DNA of 64,000 nucleotides, taken from the NCBI GenBank assembly GCA_964421015.1, contig CAYQUS010000001.1, positions 91,819 through 155,818 on the forward strand, read 5' to 3'. Position 1 is the first letter of the stretch. Each line of letters begins with the position of its first letter. Under the pieces are notes generated by a model. It was not told the DNA's origin. It did no database searches and worked only from the letters and a program-made list of their open reading frames with translations. The translations under genes were made by a program, and so were the position numbers. Origin of the DNA: an uncultured Planctomycetia bacterium. Its GTDB lineage: Bacteria > Omnitrophota > Gorgyraeia > Tantalellales > Tantalellaceae. Positions 20,212-38,820 of the stretch are shown one piece after another.

Positions 20212-21498
20212 TTACCCCTTACCCATATTCTCAAGAAACTCTTTATTCGTCTTGGATTTATGCAACCTGTCGATAAGAAGTTCCATGGCTTCTACAGAGT
20301 CCAGATCGCTGAGAGCCTTGCGCATAAGCCATATTTTCTTGAGTTCGTCCTCCTCGACAAGGAGATCCTCTTTCCTGGTATTGGAACGCTTGATATCTAT
20401 GGCCGGGTATATTCTCCTCTGGAAAAGGTTACGGTCAAGCTGTATCTCCATATTGCCGGTACCTTTAAATTCCTCGAATATCACCTCATCCATTCTGCTG
20501 CCCGTATCCACCAGGGCCGTCGCTATTATAGTAAGGCTCCCGCCCTCTTCTATGTTGCGGGCCGCACCGAAAAACCTTTTTGGTTTATGCAGCGCGTTGG
20601 AATCCACTCCGCCGGAAAGTATCTTGCCAGAATGCGGCACGGTAGAGTTATAGGCCCTTGCGAGCCTTGTTATGGAATCCAGAAGTATGACCACGTCATA
20701 CTTGTGCTCAACCAGCCGCTTGGCTTTGTGCAAAACCATTTCCGCGACTTGTATGTGCCTCTGAGCCTGTTCGTCGAAAGTCGACGCCACCACTTCCGCC
20801 TCGACCGAACGCTGCATGTCGGTAACTTCCTCCGGCCTTTCATCCACAAGAAGTATGATGAGCTTTACCTCAGGGTAGTTCTTGCTTATGCTGTTGGCGA
20901 ACTTCTGGAGAAATACCGTTTTACCGCTGTAGGGCTGGGCCACTATCATCCCTCTCTGCCCTTTACCCACGGGGGTGAGGATATCCATTATCCTCATTGA
21001 TATTTCATCAGGCACGGTTTCCAGCACGAACCTCTTGTTCGGATAAAGCGGCGTCAGGTTCTCGAACAGTATCCGGTTCTTTGCAATCTCAGGGTTCTCG
21101 AAATTCACGGCCTCCACCTTAAGAAGGGCAAAATATCTCTCGCCCTCCTTTGGCGGCCGTATCTGTCCGCTCACGGTGTCTCCGGTTTTAAGGTTGAACC
21201 GTCTTATCTGGGAAGGAGAAACATATATGTCATCTGGACAAGGCAAATAGTTGTAATCGGGGCTCCTCAGGAAACCGAACCCGTCTTCGAGTATTTCCAG
21301 CACTCCTTCCCCGTACGCGAACCCGTCTTTCTCAACCTTGGCCTGAAGTATGCTGAAAATAAGATCATGCTTCTTAAGCCCGCTTATACCGTTTATGTTC
21401 AGCTGTTTGGCCAGTTCCGTAAGTTCGGATATCTTCATATTCTTCAGCTGCACTATATCAAGTTCCTGACCAGCCTTTTTTTTCACTTCTTTTGCCAT
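20212..21498 (-). CDS. rho: Transcription termination factor Rho
   Basis: N-terminal SAP-like domain, OB fold GFGFLR, RecA-like ATPase; 428 aa. Confidence 0.9.
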
Positions 21499-22073
21499 AC
21501 CTTTTTCACTCCTTCTTTGAGTTTTTCTACGCTTTTTTCGTTCTCTATGACATAATCAGCCCTTTTTACCTTCTCTTCAGAAGACATCTGGCTGTCCATA
21601 ATAGCTCTCGCGGTTTTCTCCGGCATCCCCCTGGACACCGCTCTTTTAAGGCAGGTTTTCTCGCTTGCGTTAACCACGACCGACATATCGGTCTGCTTAT
21701 CGAGCCCGCTCTCGAAAAGAAGAGGCGCGTCAACCACCACATCTCCCGGCGCCTCGTCCACGGCTTTTTTTATCCTGCTTATTATCTTCGGGTGCATTAT
21801 CCCGCAAAGTTTCCCCAGAAGCTCCTTGTTAAAAAAAACTATCGAAGCCAGTTTTTCCCTGTTTACCGCCCCCGAAACCATAACTTCGGTACCGAAGATC
21901 TCTGTTATTTCCTTTTGTGTATCCGCGTCTTTATCCAAAAGCTCATGGGCTATAGCGTCGGCGTCTATGACCGTTGCCCCCAGAGCCGCAAACTCCCTGG
22001 CCGCTGTTGTTTTTCCGGATGAAAGGCTGCCGGTCAGGCCTATTACTCTCTTTTTTCGCTTCATTATCAGCAT
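21483..22073 (-). CDS. coaE: Dephospho-CoA kinase
   Basis: [15 protein letters not shown]-loop, 196 aa. Confidence 0.85.
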
Positions 22074-24712
22074 TCCACAGGCTCCATATCACGCCAGTTA
22101 GGCCCGGATTCCACATTGACCCTGAGAGGCACCTTAAGAGAGACCACCTCTTCCATTATTTTCCTGATATCAGAAGCGTCCTCTTTATACGTTTTCTTCG
22201 GGGTGTCAAAAACCAGCTCGTCATGCACCTGTATTATCATCGTTGTGCCCGTTCCCATGAACTTTTCCCGGCACTTTATCATCGCCATTTTTATTATGTC
22301 TGCGGCCGTACCCTGCACCGCGGTATTAACGGCGGCCCTTTCCGCGAAAGACCGTACCTTATCGTTCAAACTTGTTATGCCCGGGAGATACCTGCGCCTG
22401 CCGAAAAGAGTGGTCACGTATCCGTCTTTCCTGGTCCTGTCTATTGTCTTCGAGATAAAATCATTTATGCCGCTGTATCGGCTGAAATACGCAGATATGA
22501 AATCTTCCGCCTCTTTTACCGGTATACCCAGCGCGCCGGCAAGACCAAAAGCTCCCATACCGTAAATTATCCCGAAATTCACTGTCTTAGCGGCGGACCT
22601 CATCTCATACGTGACTTTTTCCATATCGCACCCGTATATGAGAGACGCGGTAAAAACATGCACATCCAGTTCTTCCTTGAAGGCACCTGTAAGCATCGGA
22701 TCTGCCGACAAGTGAGCCAGCACCCTAAGCTCCACCTGAGAGTAATCCGCGGCCACAAGAACGTTCTCGATTTTGCGGGGCTTGAAGGCCCTGCGTATTT
22801 CCCTTCCCACTTCCGTCTTAACGGGTATATTCTGCAGGTTGGGCTCGCTGGAGGAAAGCCGCCCCGTGGACGTCACCGCCTGATTGAATTTCGCGTGAAG
22901 CATTGCGTCCTTTGTATCGGTGAAAGTCAGGATCGAATCATAGTATCCCGTTTTGAGCTTGCTCAAACGCCGGTATTCAAGTATCTTACCGGGCAGTTCG
23001 TGCAGCTTGGAAAGTTTTTTAAGAGCCTCTTCGTCTGTGCTCCTGCCTGTCTTTATCTTCTTCCCGGCTGGCAGAGAAAGCTTTACATACAGGATATCCT
23101 GTATCTGTTTAGGCGAGTTTATATTGAATTCTTCCCCGGCCAGAGCGTACGCTTTGCGGACCAAACTGGCGAGCTCTTCTTCTATCCTTTCGGCGCCTTG
23201 TTTCAAAAGATCTAAGTCAAGCTTCACTCCGGCGGTTTCCATATCGGCCAGCACTTCCACAAGAGGCATTTCCACGTCGCGGAACAGGCTGTACAATTCC
23301 TTTTCCTTAAGCCCCTTTTCAAGCGGTCCTGTTAGCCTGAAGACGGCATCGCACATCATACAGGCCTTCAGGATGTCTTTCTCGGCCAAAAGATCTTCCA
23401 CAAGGTCTTCTCCTCCGCTCTTAGCGCGGGAAGAAGACTTATCCGAAGTTAAGGCCATACCGTGACGCGCAGCTATGTCCGCAAGAGAGTACCCCGAAAA
23501 AGAAGGGTCCAGAAGATAATCAGCCATCATAACGTCAAAAAACGGCATTTTTATTTCCACTCCGGCTTTCCCAAATAGACGCATGTCCCTTTTTATGTCG
23601 TGCCCGGCCTTGACTACGCCCCTAGCCCCGGCCACAGTGGAAAGCGCTTTAAGAGCCTCTTCGCGAAACGCCGCGTTCTTTTCAAGATCCGCGTAAAATA
23701 CCTCTCCTTCGGAAAAAGACAAGGCATATCCAACCAGACCGTTATCTGCCCGGATCGAAACAACCGGAGACTTTACAGCCGACGATACCATTTTTTTGAG
23801 ATCTTCAATGGTTGAAAGAACCGTCATTTTAACACTGGGAACTTCTGGGACTTCCAGTTCCTTTAAAAGTTTAGTGAACTCCATTTCCCTGAAGATCTCC
23901 CTGAGGGAATCGCTGTCCGGCTCTTCCAGCGAAGCCGGTATTTTTTCGTCCCCGAGCGGTACATCATGGTCCAGTATCGCCAGATCCCTGCTCAAAAAAG
24001 CCGATTCTCTGCCTTCTTCAAGTTTTTTACGTACAGATACCGGCAGAACGCTCTGAAGATCGTCATATACCTTCTCCAGGCTCCCGAATTCCCTTATAAG
24101 CTTACCGGCGGTAACCCTGCCTATACCTTTCACCCCCGGAATATTGTCGCTTGAGTCTCCCATAAGCGCCATAAGGTCGGTCATTCTCTCCGGCGGAACC
24201 CCGAATTTCTCGACCACTCCCTCAGCGTCATAAAGTTTGTCCCCGACGGGATGGGGCGAAAGCACCTTCACGCGGTCTCCCACAAGCTGGAGAGCATCCT
24301 TATCCCCCGTGACTATTGTGACGTTAAATCCTTTCTTCAGGGCTCTACGGGTCAATGTCGCTATTACGTCATCAGCCTCATAGCCGGTTTTCTCAAAAAT
24401 GGGCATCCTGTATGCCTCTACCACCGACTTTATGGTGTCCATCTGCGAAACAAGATCCTCAGGCATGGGAGACCTGTTTTCCTTGTACTTCTCATATTTT
24501 TTGTGCCGCTCAGTTTCCCCCGGAAGATCAAAGGCCACCAGAACGCTTTTGGGAGAATAATCCTTCATTATCTTCCTGATCATGGCTATAAAGCCGTAAA
24601 CAGCGTTGGTCGGGACCCCTTTTGAAGTAGAAAGCTGAGGTATGGCGTAATACGCCCTGTAACACAAAGAGTTTCCGTCTATGAGGAATATGTCGCTTTT
24701 TTCTTTATTCAT
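22067..24712 (-). CDS. polA: DNA polymerase I
   Basis: 881 aa; 5'-nuclease N-terminus (IFLIDGNSLCYRAYYA), polymerase motifs (DYSQVELR, QVHDELVF). Confidence 0.9.
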   Translation of the reverse strand: MNKEKSDIFLIDGNSLCYRAYYAIPQLSTSKGVPTNAVYGFIAMIRKIMKDYSPKSVLVAFDLPGETERHKKYEKYKENRSPMPEDLVSQMDTIKSVVEAYRMPIFEKTGYEADDVIATLTRRALKKGFNVTIVTGDKDALQLVGDRVKVLSPHPVGDKLYDAEGVVEKFGVPPERMTDLMALMGDSSDNIPGVKGIGRVTAGKLIREFGSLEKVYDDLQSVLPVSVRKKLEEGRESAFLSRDLAILDHDVPLGDEKIPASLEEPDSDSLREIFREMEFTKLLKELEVPEVPSVKMTVLSTIEDLKKMVSSAVKSPVVSIRADNGLVGYALSFSEGEVFYADLEKNAAFREEALKALSTVAGARGVVKAGHDIKRDMRLFGKAGVEIKMPFFDVMMADYLLDPSFSGYSLADIAARHGMALTSDKSSSRAKSGGEDLVEDLLAEKDILKACMMCDAVFRLTGPLEKGLKEKELYSLFRDVEMPLVEVLADMETAGVKLDLDLLKQGAERIEEELASLVRKAYALAGEEFNINSPKQIQDILYVKLSLPAGKKIKTGRSTDEEALKKLSKLHELPGKILEYRRLSKLKTGYYDSILTFTDTKDAMLHAKFNQAVTSTGRLSSSEPNLQNIPVKTEVGREIRRAFKPRKIENVLVAADYSQVELRVLAHLSADPMLTGAFKEELDVHVFTASLIYGCDMEKVTYEMRSAAKTVNFGIIYGMGAFGLAGALGIPVKEAEDFISAYFSRYSGINDFISKTIDRTRKDGYVTTLFGRRRYLPGITSLNDKVRSFAERAAVNTAVQGTAADIIKMAMIKCREKFMGTGTTMIIQVHDELVFDTPKKTYKEDASDIRKIMEEVVSLKVPLRVNVESGPNWRDMEPVEC

Positions 24713-24863
24713 TACCGGGATTTTATATGGATCGGACGCGCCCTGTGAAATTTAATTTAAGGATGGTATAGTTTTAACTGAAAAAATAAATCCACCTGTC
24801 GGATACAAGACCTGTACTGGGATCATTATCGGAGAGTGAACGATCAAACCTGGTACATCCGCA

Positions 24864-24891
24864 ATTATACCCCTCCCTGTCCGGTTGTCAA
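24864..24891 (-). promoter_or_regulatory. Perfect-consensus sigma70 promoter (TTGACA-N17-TATAAT) on minus strand, about 145 nt upstream of polA
   Basis: Minus strand reads TTGACAaccggacagggaggggTATAAT; -35 at 24886-24891, -10 at 24864-24869. Confidence 0.45.
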
Positions 24892-24914
24892 GGAATATGT
24901 CGCCATTCCGTCTT

Positions 24915-25277
24915 TTATCCCATGAATATCACTGCCAGCAGTATACCGGCTATCGCCGCCGACAAAATATAAAAATCGTTGAAATAAAAGAAATCGCTTA
25001 CCGATTCGAAAAAATTGTTGCCGCGTTCTATCACGGGTCTGCCGCTCTTCTTGCCCGGAGATTGCGCCGCCGCCGGGATCTTCTGCCTGGGAGAATCGTC
25101 CACGCGCGCGTCTATCTCCCTTCTCATGGCGTCTATCTGCTCTTTTCTGAAACGGAGAAGTTCACCGCCTATGCGGTAAGCGGGTATCACCCTATCCTCA
25201 ACAAGACGGGTAAGCCTATCTTCCGGGACCCTCAGGTATTCGGAGAGTTCCCGCAAAGTCATGAGTTTTTCGGGCAT
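24915..25277 (-). CDS. Tail-anchored helix-turn-helix protein (N-terminal excisionase/MerR-like HTH_17, C-terminal transmembrane helix)
   Basis: MTLRELSEYLRVPEDRLTRLVEDRVIPAYRIGGELLRFRKEQIDAM HTH_17-like; C-terminus FYILSAAIAGILLAVIFMG hydrophobic helix. Confidence 0.6.
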   Translation of the reverse strand: MPEKLMTLRELSEYLRVPEDRLTRLVEDRVIPAYRIGGELLRFRKEQIDAMRREIDARVDDSPRQKIPAAAQSPGKKSGRPVIERGNNFFESVSDFFYFNDFYILSAAIAGILLAVIFMG

Positions 25278-25278
25278 A

Positions 25279-25866
25279 CTAGACCTTTACCTTCCCTTCG
25301 GATATCCACTGGTCCACCTTGGCGCGCTCGAACACCCATTCTCCGCCTTCTTTAGTTCCAGGCAAAAGACCGTTGGTGGCCCACTCGTTTATCTTGATAG
25401 AATCTACCTCAAGGTATTTAGCGAGCTGGGTCATGTTCATCCAGTCACCTCTGGTCCCGGAAGAATTGACCATAAATCCAGGCATATGTATGTTCCCGGA
25501 AATAAAAGCGCCTTCCGAAATTGATATCCTGGGGGTTTCGACATCACCTGTAACTCTTGCCGTGCTCTCGAGCTTAAGCAGAGTAGTGGCTTTAACATTA
25601 CCTGTTATGGTCCCTGACACGGAAATGGTCTCGCCGGTTATATTGGCTTTAACTTCCGCGCGGTCTCCGACCATAAGACGGCCCTTAATATCCAGGGTGC
25701 CCTCGAACTTCCCGTTTATGCGAAGATTAACGGGATCATCGAAACGTAAAGTTCCCTGCATGCTGGCATTAACGTCAAGGACCTTTTCCTCCGGGACCGG
25801 TACCACGGGTTCGTTTCTTCTTTTCATGTAAGCCTCCTCTTTTAATTGCGGAGCGGTTTTCTTCAA
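25279..25866 (-). CDS. Bactofilin-domain protein fused to a C-terminal HTH_17 (excisionase-like) DNA-binding domain
   Basis: Central beta-helix repeats GTLDIKGRLMVGDRAEVKANITGETISVSGTITGNVKA..VTGDVETPRISISEGAFISGNIHMPG (bactofilin/DUF583-like); C-terminal MNMTQLAKYLEVDSIKINEWATNGLLPGTKEGGEWVFERAKVDQWI paralogous to the HTH of the adjacent gene. Confidence 0.7.
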   Translation of the reverse strand: MKKTAPQLKEEAYMKRRNEPVVPVPEEKVLDVNASMQGTLRFDDPVNLRINGKFEGTLDIKGRLMVGDRAEVKANITGETISVSGTITGNVKATTLLKLESTARVTGDVETPRISISEGAFISGNIHMPGFMVNSSGTRGDWMNMTQLAKYLEVDSIKINEWATNGLLPGTKEGGEWVFERAKVDQWISEGKVKV

Positions 25867-25885
25867 GCCTTAAGACACTATATAC

Positions 25886-26368
25886 CTATCTTCCCGTTCT
25901 TTCAGTATCTTTTTTCCCGTTCAACTTCCGTATAAGGTCATCCCTGCGTGCCTCGAATTTTTCCTGTAACGTCGAAAAAACAAGAACCACAAGCACCACG
26001 ACTGTCGTCATTACCGCCGCGCCGTACATCCCTGCTCCCACCGACAGACCTATGGCCGCCACTACCCAGACACTTGCGGCGGTGGTAAGCCCCTTTATGG
26101 ACTCACCATACCTCATTATGGCCCCCGCCCCTAGAAATCCTATTCCGGTGACCACGCCGGCCGCTATCCTCGAAGGGTCCACAGCGCCCGCCGACGAATA
26201 AGTTACCGCAACGGATATGGATGTAAGCATAAAAAGAGTCGATCCGAGACATACAAGTATGTGCGTCCGGAACCCGGCGGCCCTTTTGTGTATCTCTCGC
26301 TCGATCCCTATAACTGCCGAAAGGATAGTAGATATCGCCAGCCTGAGCGCTATATCACCCAACGTCAT
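25886..26368 (-). CDS. mgtC: MgtC/SapB family membrane protein
   Basis: LAISTILSAVIGIEREIHKRAAGFRTHILVCLGSTLFM typical MgtC N-terminus. Confidence 0.8.
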   Translation of the reverse strand: MTLGDIALRLAISTILSAVIGIEREIHKRAAGFRTHILVCLGSTLFMLTSISVAVTYSSAGAVDPSRIAAGVVTGIGFLGAGAIMRYGESIKGLTTAASVWVVAAIGLSVGAGMYGAAVMTTVVVLVVLVFSTLQEKFEARRDDLIRKLNGKKDTERTGR

Positions 26369-26405
26369 AAAGATCTCCTTTCCGGTTACAGTAACGTATG
26401 CCGCG

Positions 26406-27413
26406 CTAAAACTCGCCTAATTCCACGTTCATGAGGTCGTCCGACCTGAACCCATCCGCGAATAACCTCTCGCCCAGAACTCCTATCATGGCGGCGTTAT
26501 CGGAACAGTATTTCCGTAGTGGCAGGTAAAGATCGATACCGTTTCTTGAGCAGACATCTTTTAGGGCAGTTCTCAGGGCGGTGTTGTTAACTACCCCTCC
26601 TCCTACCGCGAGAGTCCTTGATCCTACGGAACTCACAGCCCTCAGCATTTTTTTACATATAACGTCCACCACGGCTTCCTGGAAAGAATAACATATTCTT
26701 TGGATTTCTGCATCGTTTTTTTCCGAATCTTTCCACTTATACATCACGGCTGTTTTAATACCGCTGAAACTGAAGTCCAGGTTGTGAGGGTCCTGCATAA
26801 GAGCCCTTGGAAAAACTATCTTGTCACTACCCGAGAAGTTCCCGGCAGCTCTCTCAACAGCCGGACCTCCGGGATATCCAAGGCCAAGGACCTTACCCAC
26901 CTTATCAAAGGCTTCCCCCACGGCGTCATCGACAGTACGCCCTATGACCGACACATCGCTTATGGACCTTACCATAAGCGAGCTCGTGTGTCCTCCGGAT
27001 ATGACCATGCCCGTGAAGGGATATTCAATGCCGTCAAGCCCGTTTTCATTTTCCAAAAAACATGAAAAAACATGTCCAATGATGTGGTTGACCCCGATCA
27101 TAGGTATCCCCAGAGCAATGCTTAACGCTTTGCCAAAAGCTATACCGACGAGCAAAGAACCTGCCAACCCGGGACCTTTTGTGACAGCCACAAGATCAAT
27201 ATCATTGACCGAACAAGCCGCGTCTTTAAGGGCTTTTTCGGCCACTGAAAAAATATACTCGGTATGATACCGGGAAGCTATCTCCGGGACAACCCCTCCG
27301 TAGGCCGCGTGAAGCTGCACGCTCGAGGAAACTTCGCTTGAAAGGACCCTCCCGTCCCTCACGACCGCAACGGCGGTCTCATCGCATGATGTCTCTATCC
27401 CGAGCGTAAGCAT
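26406..27413 (-). CDS. tsaD: tRNA N6-adenosine threonylcarbamoyltransferase
   Basis: MLTLGIETSCDETAVAVV and HxxGH metal motif; 335 aa. Confidence 0.9.
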   Translation of the reverse strand: MLTLGIETSCDETAVAVVRDGRVLSSEVSSSVQLHAAYGGVVPEIASRYHTEYIFSVAEKALKDAACSVNDIDLVAVTKGPGLAGSLLVGIAFGKALSIALGIPMIGVNHIIGHVFSCFLENENGLDGIEYPFTGMVISGGHTSSLMVRSISDVSVIGRTVDDAVGEAFDKVGKVLGLGYPGGPAVERAAGNFSGSDKIVFPRALMQDPHNLDFSFSGIKTAVMYKWKDSEKNDAEIQRICYSFQEAVVDVICKKMLRAVSSVGSRTLAVGGGVVNNTALRTALKDVCSRNGIDLYLPLRKYCSDNAAMIGVLGERLFADGFRSDDLMNVELGEF

Positions 27414-27443
27414 ATGGTCCCGTGTCCCCCCGGCGAACTTAGA

Positions 27444-28346
27444 TCAAAGACCGTCGATAGCCGTTATTTTAACGCCTCGGCTCTTCAGCCCGGGTAGAGC
27501 CGCTTTCAGAGCCGCTATTGTGTTTTTTCTGTCGTGGCCTATCGCCACGGCCTTTCCCTTTTTGATGGCTATATCTGCCGCTTCGTTTATTTTGGAAACT
27601 ATGTAAGGTATCTCCGACTGGTTATCCAGGAAAATATCCCTGCGGTAATATTTAACACCCTTAAGTGAGGCTTCTTCCCGGCACACGGATCCGGCTGTGG
27701 TCAGAGAGTCCAGAAAAAAAAGACCTCTCTTTTTAAGAGCTTTCATAAGAGCAGCGGAAGCCGTCCTGTCGCCTGTCGCCCTTGACCCCATGTGATTTGA
27801 TACACCTCTGGCGTAAGGGACAGTCTTTAACGCAACGTCAAGTATGAAATCGGCATCATCTTCTCCCATCCCGGCCATTAGCGTATTTTTTTCCCTGGCC
27901 CACGTCTTGGCCTCGGGCTCCATGGGAAGATGCAGAACTATTCCCATACCGTTGTCCCTGGCAAAAACCGCCGCTTCGCTGGAATGTTCAAGCCCGGGAA
28001 GTATAGCCAGCGTTATGGGTTCTTTCAGGGAACGCATTTCCTCAAAATTAGATCTGGTATACCCCGCGTCGTCAATGACCACTGCCATAAGAGCCCGGTA
28101 CGTTTCCTTTTTTTCTTCAGGTACGGCCGGGACAGCTCTGGGGACATCGACCTCTTTTTCAATACGTTCGGCTTTTTTAACTGCATCTTTTTTTACATCG
28201 ACGGGTTTTTGCCCGATAACCGGCTGTGTCTTCTCAAAAGAGACGTTCCGCCCGACAAAAAAAGCCAGTACTATGAGCGCCAGCAACCCGCCGGCAAAAA
28301 ACTGTATAAGATACTTGCCGGCCTTTAAATTCTTTTTCCTGCTCAA
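27444..28346 (-). CDS. Divergent polysaccharide deacetylase family protein (YibQ-like)
   Basis: N-terminal TM then ALMAVVIDDAGY..LAILPGLEHS..HLPMEP motifs of the YibQ/DUF610 family. Confidence 0.7.
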   Translation of the reverse strand: MSRKKNLKAGKYLIQFFAGGLLALIVLAFFVGRNVSFEKTQPVIGQKPVDVKKDAVKKAERIEKEVDVPRAVPAVPEEKKETYRALMAVVIDDAGYTRSNFEEMRSLKEPITLAILPGLEHSSEAAVFARDNGMGIVLHLPMEPEAKTWAREKNTLMAGMGEDDADFILDVALKTVPYARGVSNHMGSRATGDRTASAALMKALKKRGLFFLDSLTTAGSVCREEASLKGVKYYRRDIFLDNQSEIPYIVSKINEAADIAIKKGKAVAIGHDRKNTIAALKAALPGLKSRGVKITAIDGL

Positions 28347-29722
28347 TTATCAGCTCCCGCCTTTTCCGAAGTTGCTTCTTCTTTTTTCTTTCTATTTGCC
28401 TCAAAAACCCTTGCCCCCCTCAAAATGTTGACCGCCGTTCTTATCTGCTCGTCCTCCATTTCCTTTTCCTCGGCAGCCTCCCGGGTTTTATCGTTTTTCC
28501 CGTCAGGCAGAGTTATGTCTTTCTCTATTCTTTCGAACACCCGTGTCTTTTCGTCAGCGTCCGCAGGCTCGTCCGATCCTTTAGGGCCTCTTCTGTCCGA
28601 AGAAGTGACGATTATATCGGGCTCTATCCCCTTATCCATAAGGTTTCGCCCGGAGGGGGTGTAATACGCCGCTGTGGTGAGCCTTAAAGCGGCTTTATCC
28701 CTTAACGGTATCACCGTTTGCACAGACCCCTTCCCGAAACTTGTCTCTCCTACAAGAAGAGCCTTATTGTTGTCCCCTAAAGCTCCGGCCACTATCTCAG
28801 CCGCGCTGGCTGATCCTTTGTTTATGAGAACAACTATGTTCATATCGGAGTGCTCGGGGTCTTTCCTGGATAAAAATTCCGTCCTATCGGAAACCTCACG
28901 TCCTTCGGTATAAACAATAAGCGTTCCCTTCTCCAGGAACTTCTCCGAAACCTCGATAGCGGAATCCAGAAGCCCTCCGGGGTTATTCCTCAGATCAAGC
29001 ACAAGGCCCTTTGCTCCCTTTTTTTTCATGTCCCAAAGCGCCGAATCCATATCGCGGGCTGTCCTTTCCTGGAACTCTACAAGCTTAATGTAAGCTATGT
29101 CTCCGGAAAGTATTTTAGCCTCCTTAACGCTTTTGAGCTTGATAACGGCTCTTTTAAGTGTCATGTCGGACATTTCTCCGTCCTCGCTCATCACTGTTAT
29201 CGACACCTCTGTGCCGGGAACTCCTCTAAGCTTGCGAACTGCCTCATCAAGTGTTATGTCCCGGGTGATGTCCCCGTTTATTTTCACTACCTTGTCTCCG
29301 GCGGATATTCCCGACTCCGCCGCGGGGGTTCCTTCTATGGGTGTTATGACTGTCAAAAAACCCTCCCTGATACCTATCTCTACCCCTATCCCGCCGAACT
29401 CGCCCTTTGTCTCCTCCCTTATATCCTGAAAACTTTCTTCGTCGAGGAACTGGCTGTACCCGTCAAGCGTCTGCATCATTCCGCGTATGGCGCCGTATAC
29501 GAGATCTTTGATCTCCACTTTTTTCACATAATCCGAATTTATAAGGGTTATAGCGTCCGAGAACATCTGTATCCTTTTAAAGAGCTCCGCGGACCCGGAA
29601 CCCGCTTTAACATCGGCAGCCCCCGATACGAAAGCCCCGATGATCAGTAAGGAAACTATGACGAACAAAGAGACTCCCAGGTTTTTACTTAAAACTTTTC
29701 CATCCGCCCCGCGTCTACTCAT
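28343..29722 (-). CDS. ctpA: Carboxyl-terminal processing protease (peptidase S41, PDZ-containing)
   Basis: PDZ (GISAGDKVVKING) and S41 catalytic region VVLINKGSASAAEIVAGAL..GETSFGKGSVQT. Confidence 0.85.
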   Translation of the reverse strand: MSRRGADGKVLSKNLGVSLFVIVSLLIIGAFVSGAADVKAGSGSAELFKRIQMFSDAITLINSDYVKKVEIKDLVYGAIRGMMQTLDGYSQFLDEESFQDIREETKGEFGGIGVEIGIREGFLTVITPIEGTPAAESGISAGDKVVKINGDITRDITLDEAVRKLRGVPGTEVSITVMSEDGEMSDMTLKRAVIKLKSVKEAKILSGDIAYIKLVEFQERTARDMDSALWDMKKKGAKGLVLDLRNNPGGLLDSAIEVSEKFLEKGTLIVYTEGREVSDRTEFLSRKDPEHSDMNIVVLINKGSASAAEIVAGALGDNNKALLVGETSFGKGSVQTVIPLRDKAALRLTTAAYYTPSGRNLMDKGIEPDIIVTSSDRRGPKGSDEPADADEKTRVFERIEKDITLPDGKNDKTREAAEEKEMEDEQIRTAVNILRGARVFEANRKKKEEATSEKAGADN

Positions 29723-31191
29723 GTCAGCCTCTTTCGCAGCATTTCCCCTGCTACTTTTGGGTTTGCCTTTCCTTTTGTCAGTTTCATAACCTGTCCCACA
29801 AGAAAACTCAGAGCCGCTTCCTTTCCCGACCTGTAATCCTCCACACTTTTAGCGTTACCGTCTATTACCCCCGATATCACTTCTTCGAGTTCGGATGTAT
29901 CGGAGACCTGCTCCATGCCGAGTTCCCTGACTATATCCTCCGGATTTTTCCCGCTCTCGAGCGTTCTCTTTAGCACCTCTTTCGCGGAAAGCGCGCTTAT
30001 CCTTGAGGAAACCGTCATCCTGACTATCCCGGCAAGATGTCCCGGGTCAAGTCCGATGGAAAGGATGTCCTTTCCTTTTTCATTCATGTGCATCATTACC
30101 TCGCCCTTGATCCAGTTGCACACGGCCTGTTTTTCGGGATATAGCTTGACGGTATTTTCGTAAAAATCGGCGACATCCCTATCCGCCACAAGAGCATCAA
30201 CGTCTTTCTCGGAAAGACCATACTGCTCTAAGAACCGTTTCTTTTTCTCTCCTGCCAATTCGGGAAGACCTTTCCTTATATGCTCCACCACTTCCGGCTC
30301 CACCTCGAAAGGAACAAGATCAGGGTCCGGAAAGTACCGGTAATCCTGCGCCTCTTCCTTGGATCTCATCGATACGGTAACTCCCCTTTTTTCATCCCAC
30401 AACCGGGTCTCCTGGGATATTGTCCCCCCGTCTTCAAGAATGTCTTTCTGACGCGATATCTCATAAGAAAGAGCTTCCCTTACCGCCTTGAAAGAATTAA
30501 GGTTCTTTATCTCCACTTTCACCCCTAACTTGGAAACACCCGAGGGTTTAAGGGAGATATTGGCGTCACATCTCAAACTTCCTTCCTCCATATTGCAGTC
30601 GGAAACGCCGAGATACTTCACTGTGCGTTTAAGTTCCACTAGGTACTTATAGGCTTCCTCCGGCGAATTCATGTGCGGCTCCGAAACTATCTCAAGCAGA
30701 GGGGTGCCCGTCCGGTTAAGATCGACGTAACTGAACGGTCCGGAAGTGTCATGGATAAGTTTGCCCGCGTCCTCTTCCAGGTGCGCCCGGGTAACCCCGA
30801 TCACTTTCGGCTCGCCATTTTCACCCTGAATGGTTATTTTACCGTCATAGGCTATTGGCATGTCGTACTGACTTATCTGATAGTTCTTGGGAAGATCGGG
30901 ATAATAGTAATTTTTACGGTCGAATTTAACTATTTTCTGCACACCGCAATCCAGGGCAAGAGCTACCTTTATGGCATATTCGAATGCTTTCCTGTTAAGT
31001 ACCGGCAGGGTCCCGGGATGTCCAAGGCATACGGGACAGACCGCCGAATTGGGTTCCAGTCCGAAAGTGTTCCTGCAGGAACAGAAAACTTTTGTTTCCG
31101 TAGAAAGCTGAACATGCGTCTCTAAACCTATCACAGTGTCGTATCCTGGCATAAAACCCCTATCTTGTGGTATATCCCGCCGAGCTTTCAA
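29719..31191 (-). CDS. gatB: Asp-tRNA(Asn)/Glu-tRNA(Gln) amidotransferase subunit B
   Basis: YDTVIGLETHVQLSTETKVFCSC N-terminus, 490 aa. Confidence 0.9.
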   Translation of the reverse strand: MKARRDIPQDRGFMPGYDTVIGLETHVQLSTETKVFCSCRNTFGLEPNSAVCPVCLGHPGTLPVLNRKAFEYAIKVALALDCGVQKIVKFDRKNYYYPDLPKNYQISQYDMPIAYDGKITIQGENGEPKVIGVTRAHLEEDAGKLIHDTSGPFSYVDLNRTGTPLLEIVSEPHMNSPEEAYKYLVELKRTVKYLGVSDCNMEEGSLRCDANISLKPSGVSKLGVKVEIKNLNSFKAVREALSYEISRQKDILEDGGTISQETRLWDEKRGVTVSMRSKEEAQDYRYFPDPDLVPFEVEPEVVEHIRKGLPELAGEKKKRFLEQYGLSEKDVDALVADRDVADFYENTVKLYPEKQAVCNWIKGEVMMHMNEKGKDILSIGLDPGHLAGIVRMTVSSRISALSAKEVLKRTLESGKNPEDIVRELGMEQVSDTSELEEVISGVIDGNAKSVEDYRSGKEAALSFLVGQVMKLTKGKANPKVAGEMLRKRLT

Positions 31192-32596
31192 AAGCGTGGG
31201 CGGCTCTTATGACTATATCCTCACGAAAAGCCCCTGCCATTATCTGAAGACCCGCCGGCATGTTGTTCTCAGCCGGTCCGCACGGCACCGAAATGGCCGG
31301 TATCCCGGCCAGGTTAGCGGGTATCGTGAAAATATCAGACAGGTACATCTCAAGCGGATCCCTGGTCTTCTCCCCTATGCCGAAAGCCGTGGTCGGTGAA
31401 GTCGGAGTGATAAGGCAGTCGCAAGAGCTAAAAACCGACCTGAAATCATCCGCGATCTTGGTTCTTACCTTCTGTGCCTTAAGATAGTATTCTCCGTAAT
31501 AACCGCTGCTTAGTGAATATGTCCCGAGAAGTATTCTTCTTTTCACCTCGTCGCCGAAACCCTCGCTGCGCGACTTTACGTACATATCTATCATGTCATC
31601 ATGATGCCGGGACCGGTACCCGTAATGCGCCCCGTCATATCTGGCCAGATTGGAACTCGCCTCGGCCGGCCCCACTATGTAGTAGCAGCTTATGGCGTAT
31701 TTCGTGTGGGGTAGAGACACATCTATTATCTCTGCTCCCAGAGACCTGAAAACCTGTATGGCCTCCTCCACTCTCTTCCTTACTCCGTCGGATATGCCTT
31801 GCGGAAAATATTCCTTAGGCACCCCTACCCTGAGACCTTTTATGTCACGCCCCAGCTCCCTTGTATAATCAGGAACATCTATGTCTACCGAGGTAGAATC
31901 CCTTTTGTCGTACCCGGCTATTATCTGAAGCATCGCGGCGGCGTCAGCCACATTCCTTGTTATGGGCCCGATCTGATCAAGACTTGAAGCGAAAGCTATG
32001 AGTCCATACCTGGAAACCCTGCCGTATGTGGGCTTAAGCCCTACAACTCCGCACATGGACGCCGGCTGTCTTATCGAGCCTCCGGTATCCGACCCTATGG
32101 CCGAGGGGACCTCTCCCGCGGCTACGGCCGCGGCGGCTCCCCCGCTCGACCCCCCGGGTATCCTTGCTTTATCCAGAGGATTCTTTGTGGGCCCGAAACA
32201 GGATGTTTCGCATGACGAACCGAACGCGAACTCGTCCATATTCAGGCCTTCCAGTAAAAGCGCCCCTTCTGAATAGAGCCTCTCTGCCACATGAGCGTCG
32301 TATATGGGCCTGAAACTCTCTAGCATCCTGGAACAACAGGTGGTAAGAGCCCCTTTCAGGCATATGTTGTTCTTTATGCCTATCGGTACTCCCCAGAGCT
32401 TCCCCTTCCCGTCGGACTTCGCCACCTCATCCGCTCTTCGCTTTATCTCCTTTTCATCGATAAAAGCAAAAGCTTTTATATCACGATCTGTCTCTTTTAT
32501 ATGCCCTATTACAGCTTCGGCTGCGGCAGGAAAATCCGCCCGATAGCCTTTAACCCATTCCCTGCAACTTTCTATGCCTGAAAGACTGTTCTTCAT
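31160..32596 (-). CDS. gatA: Asp-tRNA(Asn)/Glu-tRNA(Gln) amidotransferase subunit A
   Basis: Amidase signature GGSSGGAAAAVAAG..GSDTGGSIRQPAS. Confidence 0.9.
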   Translation of the reverse strand: MKNSLSGIESCREWVKGYRADFPAAAEAVIGHIKETDRDIKAFAFIDEKEIKRRADEVAKSDGKGKLWGVPIGIKNNICLKGALTTCCSRMLESFRPIYDAHVAERLYSEGALLLEGLNMDEFAFGSSCETSCFGPTKNPLDKARIPGGSSGGAAAAVAAGEVPSAIGSDTGGSIRQPASMCGVVGLKPTYGRVSRYGLIAFASSLDQIGPITRNVADAAAMLQIIAGYDKRDSTSVDIDVPDYTRELGRDIKGLRVGVPKEYFPQGISDGVRKRVEEAIQVFRSLGAEIIDVSLPHTKYAISCYYIVGPAEASSNLARYDGAHYGYRSRHHDDMIDMYVKSRSEGFGDEVKRRILLGTYSLSSGYYGEYYLKAQKVRTKIADDFRSVFSSCDCLITPTSPTTAFGIGEKTRDPLEMYLSDIFTIPANLAGIPAISVPCGPAENNMPAGLQIMAGAFREDIVIRAAHAFESSAGYTTR

Positions 32597-32901
32597 TCCG
32601 TTTTTCCCTTGATGATACGCGGCACTTTAAAAAACTCCTCGGTCGCGTCGGGAGCGTTCAAAAGCGCCTCCCTGGTCGTGACCGAAGGCATTTGCTTGTC
32701 TTCCCTGAAAACATTTTTCATAGAAGGAAGCACATGTGTCGTGGGCGCCACACCGTCGGTGTTCACCTCATGCAGCTGTTCGATGTACCCCAGTATCCCC
32801 GAAAGCTGTTCTCTGAACATCTTTTCCTCGCCCTTGCCCAGGGATATCCTGGCAAGCGAGGCCGCGTAATGCACCACAGCGTCATTTACTATGTTTTCCA
32901 T
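32593..32901 (-). CDS. gatC: Asp-tRNA(Asn)/Glu-tRNA(Gln) amidotransferase subunit C
   Basis: 102 aa, VAHLARLS-like (VVHYAASLARISL), gatC-gatA-gatB order. Confidence 0.85.
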   Translation of the reverse strand: MENIVNDAVVHYAASLARISLGKGEEKMFREQLSGILGYIEQLHEVNTDGVAPTTHVLPSMKNVFREDKQMPSVTTREALLNAPDATEEFFKVPRIIKGKTE

Positions 32902-32940
32902 ACTCCGCCTTTCATTCCGGTCATTATGAACACTTCGGCG

Positions 32941-33798
32941 TTAATTGCCGCCAATAGCCTTTTCTGCCTCATCCGATATCCTGGCATAGAGCTCCAGAGA
33001 AATATCCTCGGCTCTTAAGGATCCGTCCACGCCAGAACTTTTAAGAACGGCCGCCCATTTATCTTTACACATTCCCATAAACCCCGAAGAGGACAACGGG
33101 TTAAGGACCTTCTTTCTCCTCTCGGAAAAGGCCTTCCTTATTATCCGGAACATAACCTCGGGATTTCCCACCTCAACGGATGGTCTATCGAGGAAATCTA
33201 TCCCGACAAGACAGGATTCGACCTTGGGTTTCGGGAAAAAACAGTTTTTGCTTATTTTAAAAAATCTGCGGACCCGCGCGTGATAGTTCACGTAACACGT
33301 AACCGCTCCGTAAACCTTCGTCCCGGGAGAGGCGCACAGCCTCGCCGCCACTTCGTCCTGTATTACCATGTAAAGCGCGCTTACTGAATCCTTGTTTTCT
33401 ATAGCCTTCTCTATTATGGGGACGGTTATGTTGTATGGAACATTGCCGTAAATAAATATCCTCCCGTCTACCCCTGCCGCCATAGCTTTTATGTCAACAT
33501 CCAGAATATCCGAGAAAACAGGTTCTACTTTAGGATCATCCCCGAACTTTTCCGCGATATATCGGTAAAGTTCCTCGTCCTTTTCCACGGCGAAAACTTT
33601 CCCGGACGCTTGCGCCAGGCTTTCGGTCATCATCCCGAACCCCGGGCCTATCTCAAGTACTGTCAAATCCCCGGCGAGAGGCAAGAACGTCAGTATCTTG
33701 TCGCGCACGTTCTTATCCACCAAAAAATTCTGCCCCAGTCTCTTGTCTGGCCTGAAAGCCCCGGAAAAACATCTTCCCTTTAATTCCCCTATATCCAT
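32941..33798 (-). CDS. rsmA: 16S rRNA (adenine1518/1519-N6)-dimethyltransferase
   Basis: LGQNFLVD..LEIGPGFGMMTE motifs of KsgA. Confidence 0.9.
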   Translation of the reverse strand: MDIGELKGRCFSGAFRPDKRLGQNFLVDKNVRDKILTFLPLAGDLTVLEIGPGFGMMTESLAQASGKVFAVEKDEELYRYIAEKFGDDPKVEPVFSDILDVDIKAMAAGVDGRIFIYGNVPYNITVPIIEKAIENKDSVSALYMVIQDEVAARLCASPGTKVYGAVTCYVNYHARVRRFFKISKNCFFPKPKVESCLVGIDFLDRPSVEVGNPEVMFRIIRKAFSERRKKVLNPLSSSGFMGMCKDKWAAVLKSSGVDGSLRAEDISLELYARISDEAEKAIGGN

Positions 33799-33809
33799 AA
33801 AGGCGGCCC

Positions 33810-34808
33810 CTACACCGGATGCTTCGCGCTTAGAGCCCTGATAGCGAGTTTTATGGCGCTTTCCATGGATTCCGGATCGGCTATACCCTTGCCGGCTATA
33901 TCAAAAGCCGTACCGTGATCGGGAGATGTCCTTACTAAACCCAACCCCAGGGTCAGGTTAACCCCGTCATTGAAATCCAGCATTTTAAACGGTCCCAGAC
34001 ATTGATCATGATACATGGCTATAACGATACTCCCCGGTCTTGAAAGGGCCTTATAGAACGCCACGTCCGAGGGAACCGGCCCCTCTATGAAAGGATATTT
34101 TCCGAGAGCCTGTTTTATCGCCGGCGCTATAACCGTCTTTTCCTCGTCTCCCATTTTACCGCCTTCACCCGCGTGAGGGTTAAGCGCTGTCACGATAACC
34201 ACCGGGTCCGGCACTCCCGACAGCAGGGCTCTGTCCTTTACCACCTGCTCAATGGTCCTGTGCACAAGATCTTTCGTCAATCTCCTGGACACATCCTTCA
34301 ATGCGACGTGACGTGTAACGGGGACCACCCTGAGCTTTTCTCCGACAAAAGCCATAACGACGAAATCAGACCCCACTGCTTCCTGCAGGAATTCCGTGTG
34401 CCCCACGAAACCGCTTTGTACCATAGATATGTTTTCTTTGCTGACCGGAGAAGTGACCAGCGCTCTGGGACGGCCGTCATCTTGCCGTAAAACCAGTTCA
34501 AGGCCCTTTTCTATGGATTTAAGCGCTTTGACCGCGCCCTCCTTTGTGGGCTTCCCCGGGATAGACTCGCCAAGAGTCTCTCCTGTATCCACAAAAGTCA
34601 CATCCCCCCTGTAATCAAAAAAGACCTCGGGGAAATGATCCTTAAAACTCTCCGAAAGAACATTTCTGTCCCCGACCACGGCGAACGTCACCTTTCCCGA
34701 AGGCAAGATCCGTTTGATCGCCTTGGCCAATATCTCCGGGCCTATACCGGCAGGATCTCCCATTGTTATGACTATTTCCGGAACGGGAATTTTCTTTTCG
34801 TCAGGCAT
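33810..34808 (-). CDS. pdxA: 4-hydroxythreonine-4-phosphate dehydrogenase
   Basis: ITMGDPAGIGPEI and GHTE motifs. Confidence 0.9.
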   Translation of the reverse strand: MPDEKKIPVPEIVITMGDPAGIGPEILAKAIKRILPSGKVTFAVVGDRNVLSESFKDHFPEVFFDYRGDVTFVDTGETLGESIPGKPTKEGAVKALKSIEKGLELVLRQDDGRPRALVTSPVSKENISMVQSGFVGHTEFLQEAVGSDFVVMAFVGEKLRVVPVTRHVALKDVSRRLTKDLVHRTIEQVVKDRALLSGVPDPVVIVTALNPHAGEGGKMGDEEKTVIAPAIKQALGKYPFIEGPVPSDVAFYKALSRPGSIVIAMYHDQCLGPFKMLDFNDGVNLTLGLGLVRTSPDHGTAFDIAGKGIADPESMESAIKLAIRALSAKHPV

Positions 34809-34844
34809 ATTGTTAAAAATTTTTTGAATTAACCGGGAACTTCG

Positions 34845-35828
34845 TTACTTGTATGATATGTACGCCTCTTTCCTCTGTTCCTCAAGATACTTTATGAGCC
34901 CCTCCTGGAATTTACCCATAAAGATCTGCTCCCTGAGAAAATCATTAACTTCGGCAAATTCGAGGGTCCTTGGCTCCTTTACCTCTTCAACCTTAAAGAT
35001 GTGGTACCCTATCGGAGTCTCAACTATCTCCGAGATATCGCCTACCCCGAGCGAGAACAGCACCGTGTCTATCTCGGGGACCGTCTGTCCTTGGGCGATA
35101 TAACCCATATTCCCGCCGTCTTCGGCATACGGCCCTTCAGAGGTCTCCACCGCAAGAAGTGAAAAGTCTTTGGTATTAAGGGCCTTTTCCCTCACCTCTT
35201 CCATTTTTTTACGAGAGTCCTCGTTGCTTCGGTCCTCTCTTTTTCGGATCATGATGGTCTTAACAAGGAGCTGTTTGGGCGCCATCATCTCATCGATATG
35301 CTCGTCGTAAAAATCCTTCACTTCACCCGGGGTCACCATTATGGAGGAAGCTACCTCCTCCTGCACAAGTTTCTGCGCCAGCATTTGTTCCCGGATCTCT
35401 TTCTCGAACTCGGAAAGATTGGTCCCTCTGTCACTGAGCGCTTTAAGAAAATCCGCTTCGCTTCCGTAGTACGCTTTCTTTATCGTATCGATGCGCCTTT
35501 TCAGCTCTTCCTCATCTATCTCTATTTTCTTTTTTTTAGCTATGCTGGTGGCTAGCTTGGCGTTTATCAGGTGGTCCTTTACTCCGCTTTCGGCTTCCTG
35601 TAGCTTCTGATTAAGCTCGTCTCCTGAGAAATTCTGCTCAAGATTTCTCTTTATCGGCTGAAAAACCCTGTCAAATTCCCTTTGAGTCACAACTTCATCG
35701 TTCACTACTATGAGTATCCTGTCCAGGGCCTCGGCCCATGAAACAGATGGTTTTGCCGATGAAAAAACCAAAAGAGCCAGTATCAAAAATACGGTGAAAA
35801 CCGTTTTCTCAGATTTCTTTTCAAACAT
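34845..35828 (-). CDS. surA: SurA-like periplasmic chaperone / parvulin-type peptidyl-prolyl isomerase
   Basis: Signal peptide, SurA N-domain-like helices, PpiC domain (GGNMGYIAQGQTVPE..PIGYHIFKV); surA-pdxA-ksgA synteny as in E. coli. Confidence 0.7.
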   Translation of the reverse strand: MFEKKSEKTVFTVFLILALLVFSSAKPSVSWAEALDRILIVVNDEVVTQREFDRVFQPIKRNLEQNFSGDELNQKLQEAESGVKDHLINAKLATSIAKKKKIEIDEEELKRRIDTIKKAYYGSEADFLKALSDRGTNLSEFEKEIREQMLAQKLVQEEVASSIMVTPGEVKDFYDEHIDEMMAPKQLLVKTIMIRKREDRSNEDSRKKMEEVREKALNTKDFSLLAVETSEGPYAEDGGNMGYIAQGQTVPEIDTVLFSLGVGDISEIVETPIGYHIFKVEEVKEPRTLEFAEVNDFLREQIFMGKFQEGLIKYLEEQRKEAYISYK

Positions 35829-36741: not shown

Positions 36742-36864
36742 GCTCTTTCGTGGGTTATATTTTAAAAAGTCCCCGACTATAATATCAGAATAACCTTAGG
36801 CCTTCAAGCTCATTCAGGGCAACTGAAAGTGTTACCGTAAGCAAAACCACGGCTTATCCGTAAA

Positions 36865-38769: not shown

Positions 38770-38820
38770 TTATTATCCGCCCCCGCTTCCCCGTTCTCCA
38801 GAGGATCACGCCGGAAAGCT

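Follow-up and report, generated by a model that had tools for sequence, protein, structure and literature searches.

Bactofilins are usually described as a β-helical core with short disordered tails. In the RodZ–MreB system, the cytoplasmic helix-turn-helix (HTH) of a bitopic membrane protein binds a cytoskeletal polymer and not DNA. Bactofilins are contacted by an HTH protein in Bacillus subtilis, where BacR (YhbD) binds BacE/BacF near its HTH; these bactofilins recruit BacR to the membrane and block its DNA binding, and cell-wall stress sets it free to move to the nucleoid (PMC13649987). The RocS protein of Streptococcus pneumoniae needs oligomerisation to bind the membrane (PMC11500499). 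Here we describe a gene pair present in a 64-kb stretch of Omnitrophota DNA (contig CAYQUS010000001.1; this whole stretch is called the window). One gene encodes a bactofilin fused to a C-terminal winged HTH (wHTH) domain, and the next encodes a tail-anchored protein, called the partner, which carries a paralogous wHTH domain at its N-terminus. The pair is real, uncharacterised and conserved across the sampled Omnitrophota. Its parts, a bactofilin, an HTH_17 domain and a tail anchor, are all known; we found no published description of their combination.

Domain architecture and conservation of the gene pair

The fusion protein matched Pfam Bactofilin (PF04519) over profile positions 2–97 of 98, with an E-value of 1.3e-24 and a score of 86.8 bits (cut-off 27.9). 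Its C-terminus matched HTH_17 (PF12728) with 29.7 bits (cut-off 27), and its score against TIGR01764, the NCBIfam excisionase-type model, was 25.4, under the cut-off of 28.8. The partner matched HTH_17 at residues 5–53 (34.5 bits, cut-off 27) and TIGR01764 (41.2, cut-off 28.8). These profile searches bear out the domain calls of an earlier interpretation of this DNA made from the letters only, referred to below as the sequence-only reading.

Structures were predicted with AlphaFold2 (AF2) for the single proteins. The fusion model (overall predicted local distance difference test, pLDDT, 76) comprises a core of β-strands at residues 17–110 (pLDDT 84–92), a linker with pLDDT below 50 at residues 120–125, and a β-α-α-β-β-α winged helix at residues 129–176. 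In Foldseek searches of the Protein Data Bank (PDB), the core matched the Thermus bactofilin TtBac (6rib/6ria; TMt 0.75–0.77, probability 1.0, E=0.08–0.18). The head matched the DNA-binding domain of RacA (5i44, 27% identity) and BldC (6ama/6amk, root-mean-square deviation (rmsd) 1.2–1.7 Å), and then RdfS (rmsd 1.6 Å), Pukovnik Xis, HiNmlR, pSK1 Par (8csh) and CbpM; the Foldseek E-values are weak since the domains are small, with probabilities close to 1. Profile searches of PDB sequences agreed on the head (Xis gp37, RacA, BldC). The predicted β-helix, together with the TtBac match, supports the bactofilin fold that had been proposed for the central region, and the core would be expected to polymerise into filaments. 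The core segment (residues 16–113, 98 amino acids) showed zero indels across 81 orthologues, and the linker segment (residues 114–128) varied from 5 to 24 amino acids.

The partner was modelled with low confidence (pLDDT 63 overall, 59–71 in the head). The model shows a wHTH at residues 5–60, disorder at residues 62–87 (pLDDT <50), a helix at residues 88–99 and a terminal helix at residues 101–119 (pLDDT 83–90). The best 17-residue Kyte–Doolittle window had a mean of 2.94 over 81 orthologues and was followed by a median of 2 residues only; the partner is therefore a genuine tail-anchored protein, and the single C-terminal transmembrane helix noticed earlier is confirmed. The motif D-F-x-Y-F-N-D-F-Y precedes this helix in 71/81 orthologues, D95, F99, D101 and F102 being invariant (alignment A2), and the linker between head and motif is 10–46 amino acids long with a mean charge of +1.7. 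The fusion head and the partner head are homologous according to hhalign (probability 97.9%, E=3.8e-13, 24% identity), in agreement with their earlier description as paralogues. No other open reading frame (ORF) with a head of HTH_17 type was found in the 64-kb window.

One genome per species was scanned, and the fusion was found in 126 species; 80 loci were kept, each from a different species genome. The partner gene directly follows the fusion gene on the same strand in 80/80 loci, down to 43% identity, and the commonest spacer between the two is 1 nt. Because the same adjacent pair is present in all these loci, the pairing is not chance, and the tight same-strand coupling described from the window alone is correct. 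The constant adjacency and 1-nt spacer suggest co-translation and a fixed stoichiometry. Directly upstream of the fusion gene, an mgtC match was found in 77/80 loci, and ctpA, a gene for a YibQ-like deacetylase and tsaD precede mgtC in loci down to 43% identity. In a relative with 31% identity (P0283, locus L082), MgtC, the fusion and a tail-anchored HTH protein with a DFFYFN motif are all kept. The MgtC of this locus (~100–765) has about 85 more residues than that of the window, probably the soluble C-terminal domain of full-length MgtC; this domain has apparently been lost within the phylum.

At 90% clustering, the fusion has 1,837 relatives; the best 120 of these have both Pfam domains, a length of about 180 amino acids and an Omnitrophota/Omnitrophica name wherever one is given. 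For the partner, 574 relatives were found, under the same labels. An exhaustive search of 1.84 billion representatives returned about 25–30 full-length two-domain representatives, then plain bactofilins. All 80 kept loci are from Omnitrophota metagenome-assembled genomes (MAGs), some of which carry an automatic ‘uncultured Planctomycetia’ label. Many MAGs entitled ‘uncultured Planctomycetia/Planctomycetales bacterium’ (L001, L003, L005, L008–L010, L017, L019, L021 and others) have an Omnitrophota-type synteny, with orthologues 45–83% identical, and these record titles look like coarse automatic labels that do not designate true Planctomycetes. The sequence-only reading knew of no characterised bactofilin–HTH fusion. 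This part stands, as our literature search found no paper on such a fusion, nor any on bactofilins in Omnitrophota; the databases name these proteins ‘polymer-forming cytoskeletal protein’ or ‘excisionase family DNA binding protein’ and nothing more. The fusion is conserved across the sampled Omnitrophota, so it is not rare.

All genes of the module lie on the minus strand, and both ORFs were found where they had been placed earlier. The features are as follows, in coordinates of the 64-kb window:

27413..26406, minus strand: tsaD, which precedes mgtC in order of transcription
25886..26368, minus strand: mgtC, with which the conserved trio begins, encoding an MgtC/SapB-family membrane protein of 160 amino acids, membrane domain only (Pfam MgtC PF02308, E=1.6e-39)
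25833..25837, minus strand: Shine–Dalgarno sequence GGAGG, 5 nt upstream of ATG 25827 (direct sequence reading)
25279..25827, minus strand: bactofilin–wHTH fusion gene, 182 amino acids plus stop (Pfam Bactofilin and HTH_17)
25783..25827, minus strand: basic N-terminal tail of the fusion, residues 1–15, MKRRNEPVVPVPEEK, a degenerate membrane-targeting sequence
25483..25782, minus strand: bactofilin β-helix core, residues 16–115 (AF2 strands, Foldseek, length conservation)
25444..25482, minus strand: variable linker of the fusion, residues 116–128 (length variation, low pLDDT)
25294..25443, minus strand: acidic C-terminal winged HTH of the fusion, residues 129–178, β-α-α-β-β-α (HTH_17, fold neighbours)
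24915..25277, minus strand: gene of the tail-anchored wHTH partner, 120 amino acids plus stop (HTH_17 and TIGR01764)
25110..25271, minus strand: N-terminal wHTH of the partner, residues 3–56 (AF2 secondary structure)
25008..25109, minus strand: partner linker, residues 57–90, variable, mildly basic and disordered (length, charge, pLDDT)
24969..25007, minus strand: aromatic/acidic juxtamembrane segment of the partner, residues 91–103, conserved, with the motif D-F-F-Y-F-N-D-F-Y (motif in orthologues)
24918..24968, minus strand: C-terminal transmembrane helix of the partner, the tail anchor (Kyte–Doolittle, AF2 helix)
24864..24891, minus strand: perfect σ70-type promoter TTGACA-16-TATAAT, outside the module, 24 nt past the partner stop and 152 nt before the polA ATG
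24712..22067, minus strand: polA, separated from the partner gene by a 202-nt spacer

Several details of the locus differ from the sequence-only reading. The fusion ORF had been taken from a TTG at 25866; its real start is ATG 25827, because GGAGG lies 5 nt upstream, the N-termini of fusion orthologues are MKRK/MRKK, and a 182-residue protein from a Candidatus Omnitrophota MAG (P0001) is 100% identical to the fusion. A gap of 1 nt (TAG-T-ATG), and not of 2 nt, lies between the fusion stop and the partner start. The gene mgtC (26368..25886), which had been placed downstream of the pair, lies upstream of it on the minus strand. The perfect promoter at 24891..24864 had been put directly upstream of the pair's stop; it follows the partner stop and faces polA, which rules it out as the pair's own promoter, and it most likely drives polA. 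A second, weaker promoter-like site, at 24749–24720, also lies before polA. It therefore seems that polA has a strong promoter of its own and is not transcribed by read-through of the module. Between positions 20 and 30 kb of the window, a search for structured RNA gave nothing.

An N-terminal membrane-targeting peptide is common in bactofilins, yet not obligatory. The consensus of this membrane-targeting sequence (MTS) is MFSKKKK; its critical residues in BacA are F2 and the lysines, and the MTS can be substituted in trans by the client PbpC (PMC12448750). A hydrophobic residue followed by a K/R cluster starts 44/81 fusion orthologues, the hydrophobic residue being Phe in 22 cases, as in MAFKKKLEEK. 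The window fusion starts with MKRRNEPVV, which is basic and devoid of a hydrophobic residue, so that it does not form a complete membrane-targeting peptide; throughout its clade (MKRRNE, MRKKK) the basic cluster is kept and the hydrophobic residue is lost. The median fusion–partner spacer was 1 nt in loci lacking the MTS-like motif, compared with 15 nt in loci with the motif (Mann–Whitney p=1.4e-4, confounded by shared ancestry), which makes a link between MTS loss and tight gene coupling suggestive.

Residues of the heads at DNA-contact positions

Two recognition-helix residues of BldC, K26 and R30, read bases; phosphates are contacted by T27, T29 and K33, and the wing residues H46, R47 and R48 reach into the minor groove. 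Binding is lost in the BldC mutants R30A, H46E and G44E (PMC5859096). Conservation of K15 and R19 is complete in RacA, whose R19A mutant no longer binds DNA (PMC4914108). The heads of 81 fusions and 81 partners were aligned with BldC, RacA and Xis, with the conserved Trp as anchor. At the position of BldC R30 and RacA R19, 78/81 fusion heads carry an acidic residue (Glu or Asp; E148 in the window) and none (0/81) a basic one; partner heads are acidic in 45/81 and basic in 7/81 cases. The position of BldC K26 and RacA K15 is basic in only 5/81 fusion heads and in 43/81 partner heads. At the BldC K33 position, 6/81 fusion heads are basic and 56/81 partner heads acidic. The BldC H46 position is occupied by aromatic or hydrophobic residues, with W in 68/81 fusion heads. 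The basic base-contacting residues of a canonical recognition helix are therefore not what these heads display, and the claim that both bind DNA, on which the sequence-only reading relied, is not supported by the alignment. To judge from these residues, canonical major-groove insertion by an acidic recognition helix is unlikely for either head.

The net charge of the fusion head averaged -3.3 (range -7 to 0, 81 sequences) and that of the partner head 0.05. The aligned stretches of BldC and Pukovnik Xis have charges of +6 and +5, but that of RacA, which is a DNA-binding protein, is -1, so net charge alone is a weak argument. The background set of ordinary Omnitrophota HTH_17 proteins amounted to a single sequence, too few for statistics: in about 820 kb of Omnitrophota DNA examined, the sole ordinary stand-alone HTH_17 ORF (L072:3788–4081) is basic both in its recognition helix (TLYKKV, K-K falling on the key position) and in its wing (RMGRALRFKK), unlike the acidic heads of the module.

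Roles considered for the module

Because the canonical basic residues are replaced by acidic ones, we propose that the heads are protein-docking adaptors. The explanation which we rank first, although we hold it tentatively and at somewhat less than even chances, is a membrane-attached bactofilin scaffold with wHTH heads of this kind. The bactofilin core would polymerise on the inner face of the cytoplasmic membrane, and each fusion subunit would present its C-terminal winged-helix head on a flexible linker. The partner would sit in the same membrane, held there by its C-terminal helix, and would carry the related head on a flexible stalk. Both heads would act mainly as protein-docking adaptors and not as classical sequence-specific DNA readers, and they would tie the filament to the tail-anchored partner and probably to MgtC. 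In the clade of the window, where the bactofilin's own targeting residue is lost, the partner would supply the membrane anchor in trans. We infer head–partner contacts, an involvement of MgtC and a cellular role of this type. In its favour we count the complete, indel-free bactofilin core, the constant adjacency of the pair, the MTS-like N-termini together with the precedent of PbpC, the tighter gene coupling where the MTS is lost, and the syntenic housekeeping setting. The adaptor scaffold is placed first because the residues of the heads do not favour classical DNA reading and because there are precedents for MerR-like protein binders: BacR with BacE/BacF for a contact between an HTH protein and bactofilins, and CbpM, a fold neighbour of the head, which with the CbpA J-domain illustrates a MerR-like fold used for protein binding. 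BldC itself oligomerises head-to-tail via its α1–α2 turn, W31 and wing (PMC5859096). The equivalents of this interface (YLEVD, W149, wing Gly) are the best-conserved head positions in our alignments, which would fit head-mediated protein contacts by analogy with BldC.

A number of observations weigh against the adaptor scaffold. To our knowledge, almost every characterised domain of the HTH_17, MerR-like or excisionase type binds DNA, and the closest architectural analogues, RacA, RocS and pSK1 Par, are DNA tethers. The window's own partner has an Arg (R24) at the BldC R30/RacA R19 position. In the wing, the BldC R41 position is K or R in 77/81 fusion and 74/81 partner heads; in the partner R42 is invariant and R/K44 is found in 77/81. 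As these basic wing residues are retained, the heads may bind DNA in a non-canonical way, non-specifically or through the wing. Evolutionary rates were compared by regressing pairwise distances on tsaD plus ctpA divergence in the 62 taxa with all genes, followed by partial Mantel tests on the residuals. Fusion head and partner head did not covary significantly in these 62 taxa (r=0.10, p=0.09), so that head–head covariation could not be used as proof of a direct contact between them. The remaining gene pairs, including partner wHTH versus bactofilin core or head, gave correlations near zero in the same taxa, with one exception: the rate residuals of the partner wHTH and MgtC were correlated (r=0.43, p=0.0005), driven partly by one clade in which both rates are accelerated (L054, L075, L076, L078), and Mantel tests are liberal on phylogenetically structured data. 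We regard this covariation, which speaks for the adaptor scaffold, as a lead, not a finding. A single-transmembrane peptide, MgtR, is known to regulate MgtC in Salmonella.

The sequence-only reading had proposed a device that tethers DNA to a membrane-associated polymer. In such a DNA–membrane tether, one or both wHTH heads would bind the chromosome, the bactofilin would give multivalency and the partner would fix the DNA to the membrane, as in a split RocS/pSK1 Par or RacA–DivIVA system serving chromosome anchoring, segregation or nucleoid organisation. The precedents for this proposal are real: the top fold neighbours of the head are the RacA DNA-binding domain, BldC, excisionases and pSK1 Par, RocS joins a wHTH, an oligomeriser and a membrane anchor in one chain (PMC11500499), and RacA has its wHTH linked to a coiled coil through which it docks on a polar scaffold (PMC4914108). 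Conserved basic residues in the wing, R24 of the window partner and the basic partner linker (mean +1.7) also favour it, as do the organisation of ParABS by bactofilins in Myxococcus (PMC5703909) and a second Omnitrophota bactofilin–wHTH subfamily, described below, that adjoins a ParA/MipZ-like ATPase gene. What speaks against it is the DNA-reading surface of the heads: base-contacting positions of the recognition helix are acidic in most family members, the bactofilin head (mean -3.3) is positive in 0/81 sequences, and the BldC mutations H46E and R30A, which abolish binding, resemble the natural state of these heads (PMC5859096). On balance we consider the tether a doubtful explanation, to be kept as the main competitor of the adaptor scaffold. 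A broader version, in which the head-studded filament and the partner, with or without MgtC, form a general, kinetochore-like scaffold for chromosome–membrane anchoring and segregation in Omnitrophota, based on non-canonical wing-dominated DNA binding, and in which the ParA/MipZ-linked paralogue positions other cargo, appears unlikely to us.

Two further explanations are less probable again. The partner or the fused head could be a transcription factor gated by sequestration on a membrane bactofilin polymer, which would auto-regulate the mgtC–bactofilin operon or control an envelope-stress regulon. The operon organisation is similar to that of B. subtilis, where the HTH protein of the bactofilin operon is membrane-held and stress-released (PMC13649987), but a tail-anchored protein is unable to leave the membrane, the pair has no DUF4004 match, and the same loss of DNA-contact residues applies; such a switch seems quite improbable. 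The least probable explanation is that MgtC, the fusion and the partner are three housekeeping neighbours with independent functions, adjacent merely by conserved regional gene order. The ctpA–yibQ–tsaD–mgtC–pair block is indeed collinear in nearly all loci, including the clearly unrelated tsaD. Against this, the 1-nt spacing of the pair is kept in many species, the trio survives in the 31%-identity relative, whose shown flanking genes differ, and fusion and partner share a similarly altered, specialised head that hardly occurs elsewhere in the ~820 kb of Omnitrophota DNA examined.

The window neighbourhood consists of core genes: mfd, two surA-like genes, pdxA, ksgA, gatA, gatB, ctpA, yibQ-like, tsaD, the module, polA, coaE and rho. 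From mfd (plus one further unannotated ORF) to coaE, about 19 kb (21483–40515, minus strand) are occupied by an unbroken run of same-strand housekeeping genes. Packing in this run is very compact, and stops and starts overlap or abut at coaE/polA (22067–22073), yibQ-like/ctpA (28343–28346), ctpA/gatB (29719–29722) and gatB/gatA (31160–31191). From this housekeeping neighbourhood, our guess is that the module has a role in envelope or cell organisation. No integrase is present among the neighbouring genes annotated from rho (20212) to mfd (38769), and PADLOC, PHROG and neighbour annotation gave no sign of a mobile element or defence island at the module. A prophage excisionase, or one from an integrative and conjugative element, was ruled out by the lack of a nearby integrase, by core-gene synteny across the sampled phylum and by the generic nature of the PHROG matches. 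The MADS anti-phage system was likewise rejected: PADLOC reported weak mad1 matches and no other MADS component, the MAD1 scores being 40.1 and 37.8 bits for a cut-off of 80, and the neighbours are housekeeping genes.

A smaller bactofilin–HTH_17 subfamily, 28% identical to the window fusion and with one member named Omnitrophica WOR_2, was found at five loci (L081:6001–6567, L085:3754–4317, L086:3758–4321, L083:179–754 and L084:151–726). Its genes are not adjacent to MgtC or to a tail-anchored HTH protein, and its head also has a Glu before the Trp/Leu position. In L081, L085 and L086, the gene follows those of a 465-residue ParA/MipZ-like ATPase with an AMPK1_CBM domain and of two unknown ORFs. 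L081 also has an actin-like gene (Volactin Pfam) and a gene of the MamF_MmsF family, a Pfam family that is not magnetosome-specific. About 5 kb separate the gene from gas-vesicle genes in L083 and L084 (GvpA, joined in L083 by a GvpN-like AAA protein), and both loci start short of the upstream stretch. This second subfamily may be a cargo-positioning system.

A folded domain on every subunit and a dedicated membrane partner, conserved in the phylum, extend the scope of the bactofilin cytoskeleton. The module appears to be a natural case of an excisionase/MerR-type winged helix that has been put to a use other than canonical DNA reading. Omnitrophota are uncultured and often ultra-small, and a module present in every sampled species is a rare concrete handle on the organisation of their envelope or chromosome. 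The pair is small (182 and 120 amino acids) and tractable, which makes the question of adaptor or tether directly answerable.

Comparison with described systems

Like the canonical bactofilins Caulobacter crescentus BacA and Thermus thermophilus TtBac, the fusion has a complete PF04519 core, a short basic N-terminal tail and an association with a membrane protein, a role played for canonical bactofilins by clients such as PbpC, LmdC and Csd5/7. It differs from them by a folded 50-residue winged HTH where they have a short disordered C-terminal tail, by the absence of the hydrophobic MTS residue in the window fusion, and by a membrane neighbour devoid of periplasmic or enzymatic domain. RodZ, the precedent for a membrane-bound HTH that binds a polymer, differs from the pair by an XRE-type HTH, a periplasmic domain and the actin-like MreB as its partner. 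BldC resembles the heads as a minimal MerR-like wHTH (rmsd 1.2–1.7 Å to the model); it has a net charge of +6 and the DNA-contacting residues R30, H46, R47 and R48, whereas here only part of the wing stays basic.

The BacR–BacE/BacF system also co-encodes an HTH protein with bactofilin(s), as does the present locus in 80/80 cases. However, BacR is a soluble DUF4004 protein that has an intact ‘YRW’ recognition helix and binds DNA (PMC13649987). Here one HTH is fused to the bactofilin, the other is permanently anchored in the membrane, the recognition helices are acidic, and a Pfam search of the pair gave no DUF4004 match at E<=1.

RacA–DivIVA shares with the module a wHTH, a flexible linker and a self-associating domain that docks on a membrane scaffold, and RacA is the closest solved head fold (PMC4914108); in our proteins the positions of K15 and R19 are non-basic or acidic, and the oligomeriser is a bactofilin and not a coiled coil. 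RocS and pSK1 Par, which are proposed DNA–membrane tethers, similarly have a wHTH at the N-terminus, a membrane anchor at the C-terminus and an oligomerisation module (PMC11500499). In these, one polypeptide carries everything, including a coiled coil and an amphipathic helix, whereas the functions are divided here between two proteins that provide a bactofilin polymer and a true transmembrane tail anchor, and DNA binding is disfavoured by the residues. Across the pair, two parts of a tether are present, a self-association module (the bactofilin) and an anchor (the transmembrane helix); the third, DNA binding by the heads, is doubtful in view of their contact residues. Finally, the BacNOP–PadC–ParABS system of Myxococcus xanthus provides a bactofilin scaffold tied to the chromosome via an adaptor; its link to DNA is indirect, through PadC and ParB, and it includes no fused DNA-binding domain (PMC5703909).

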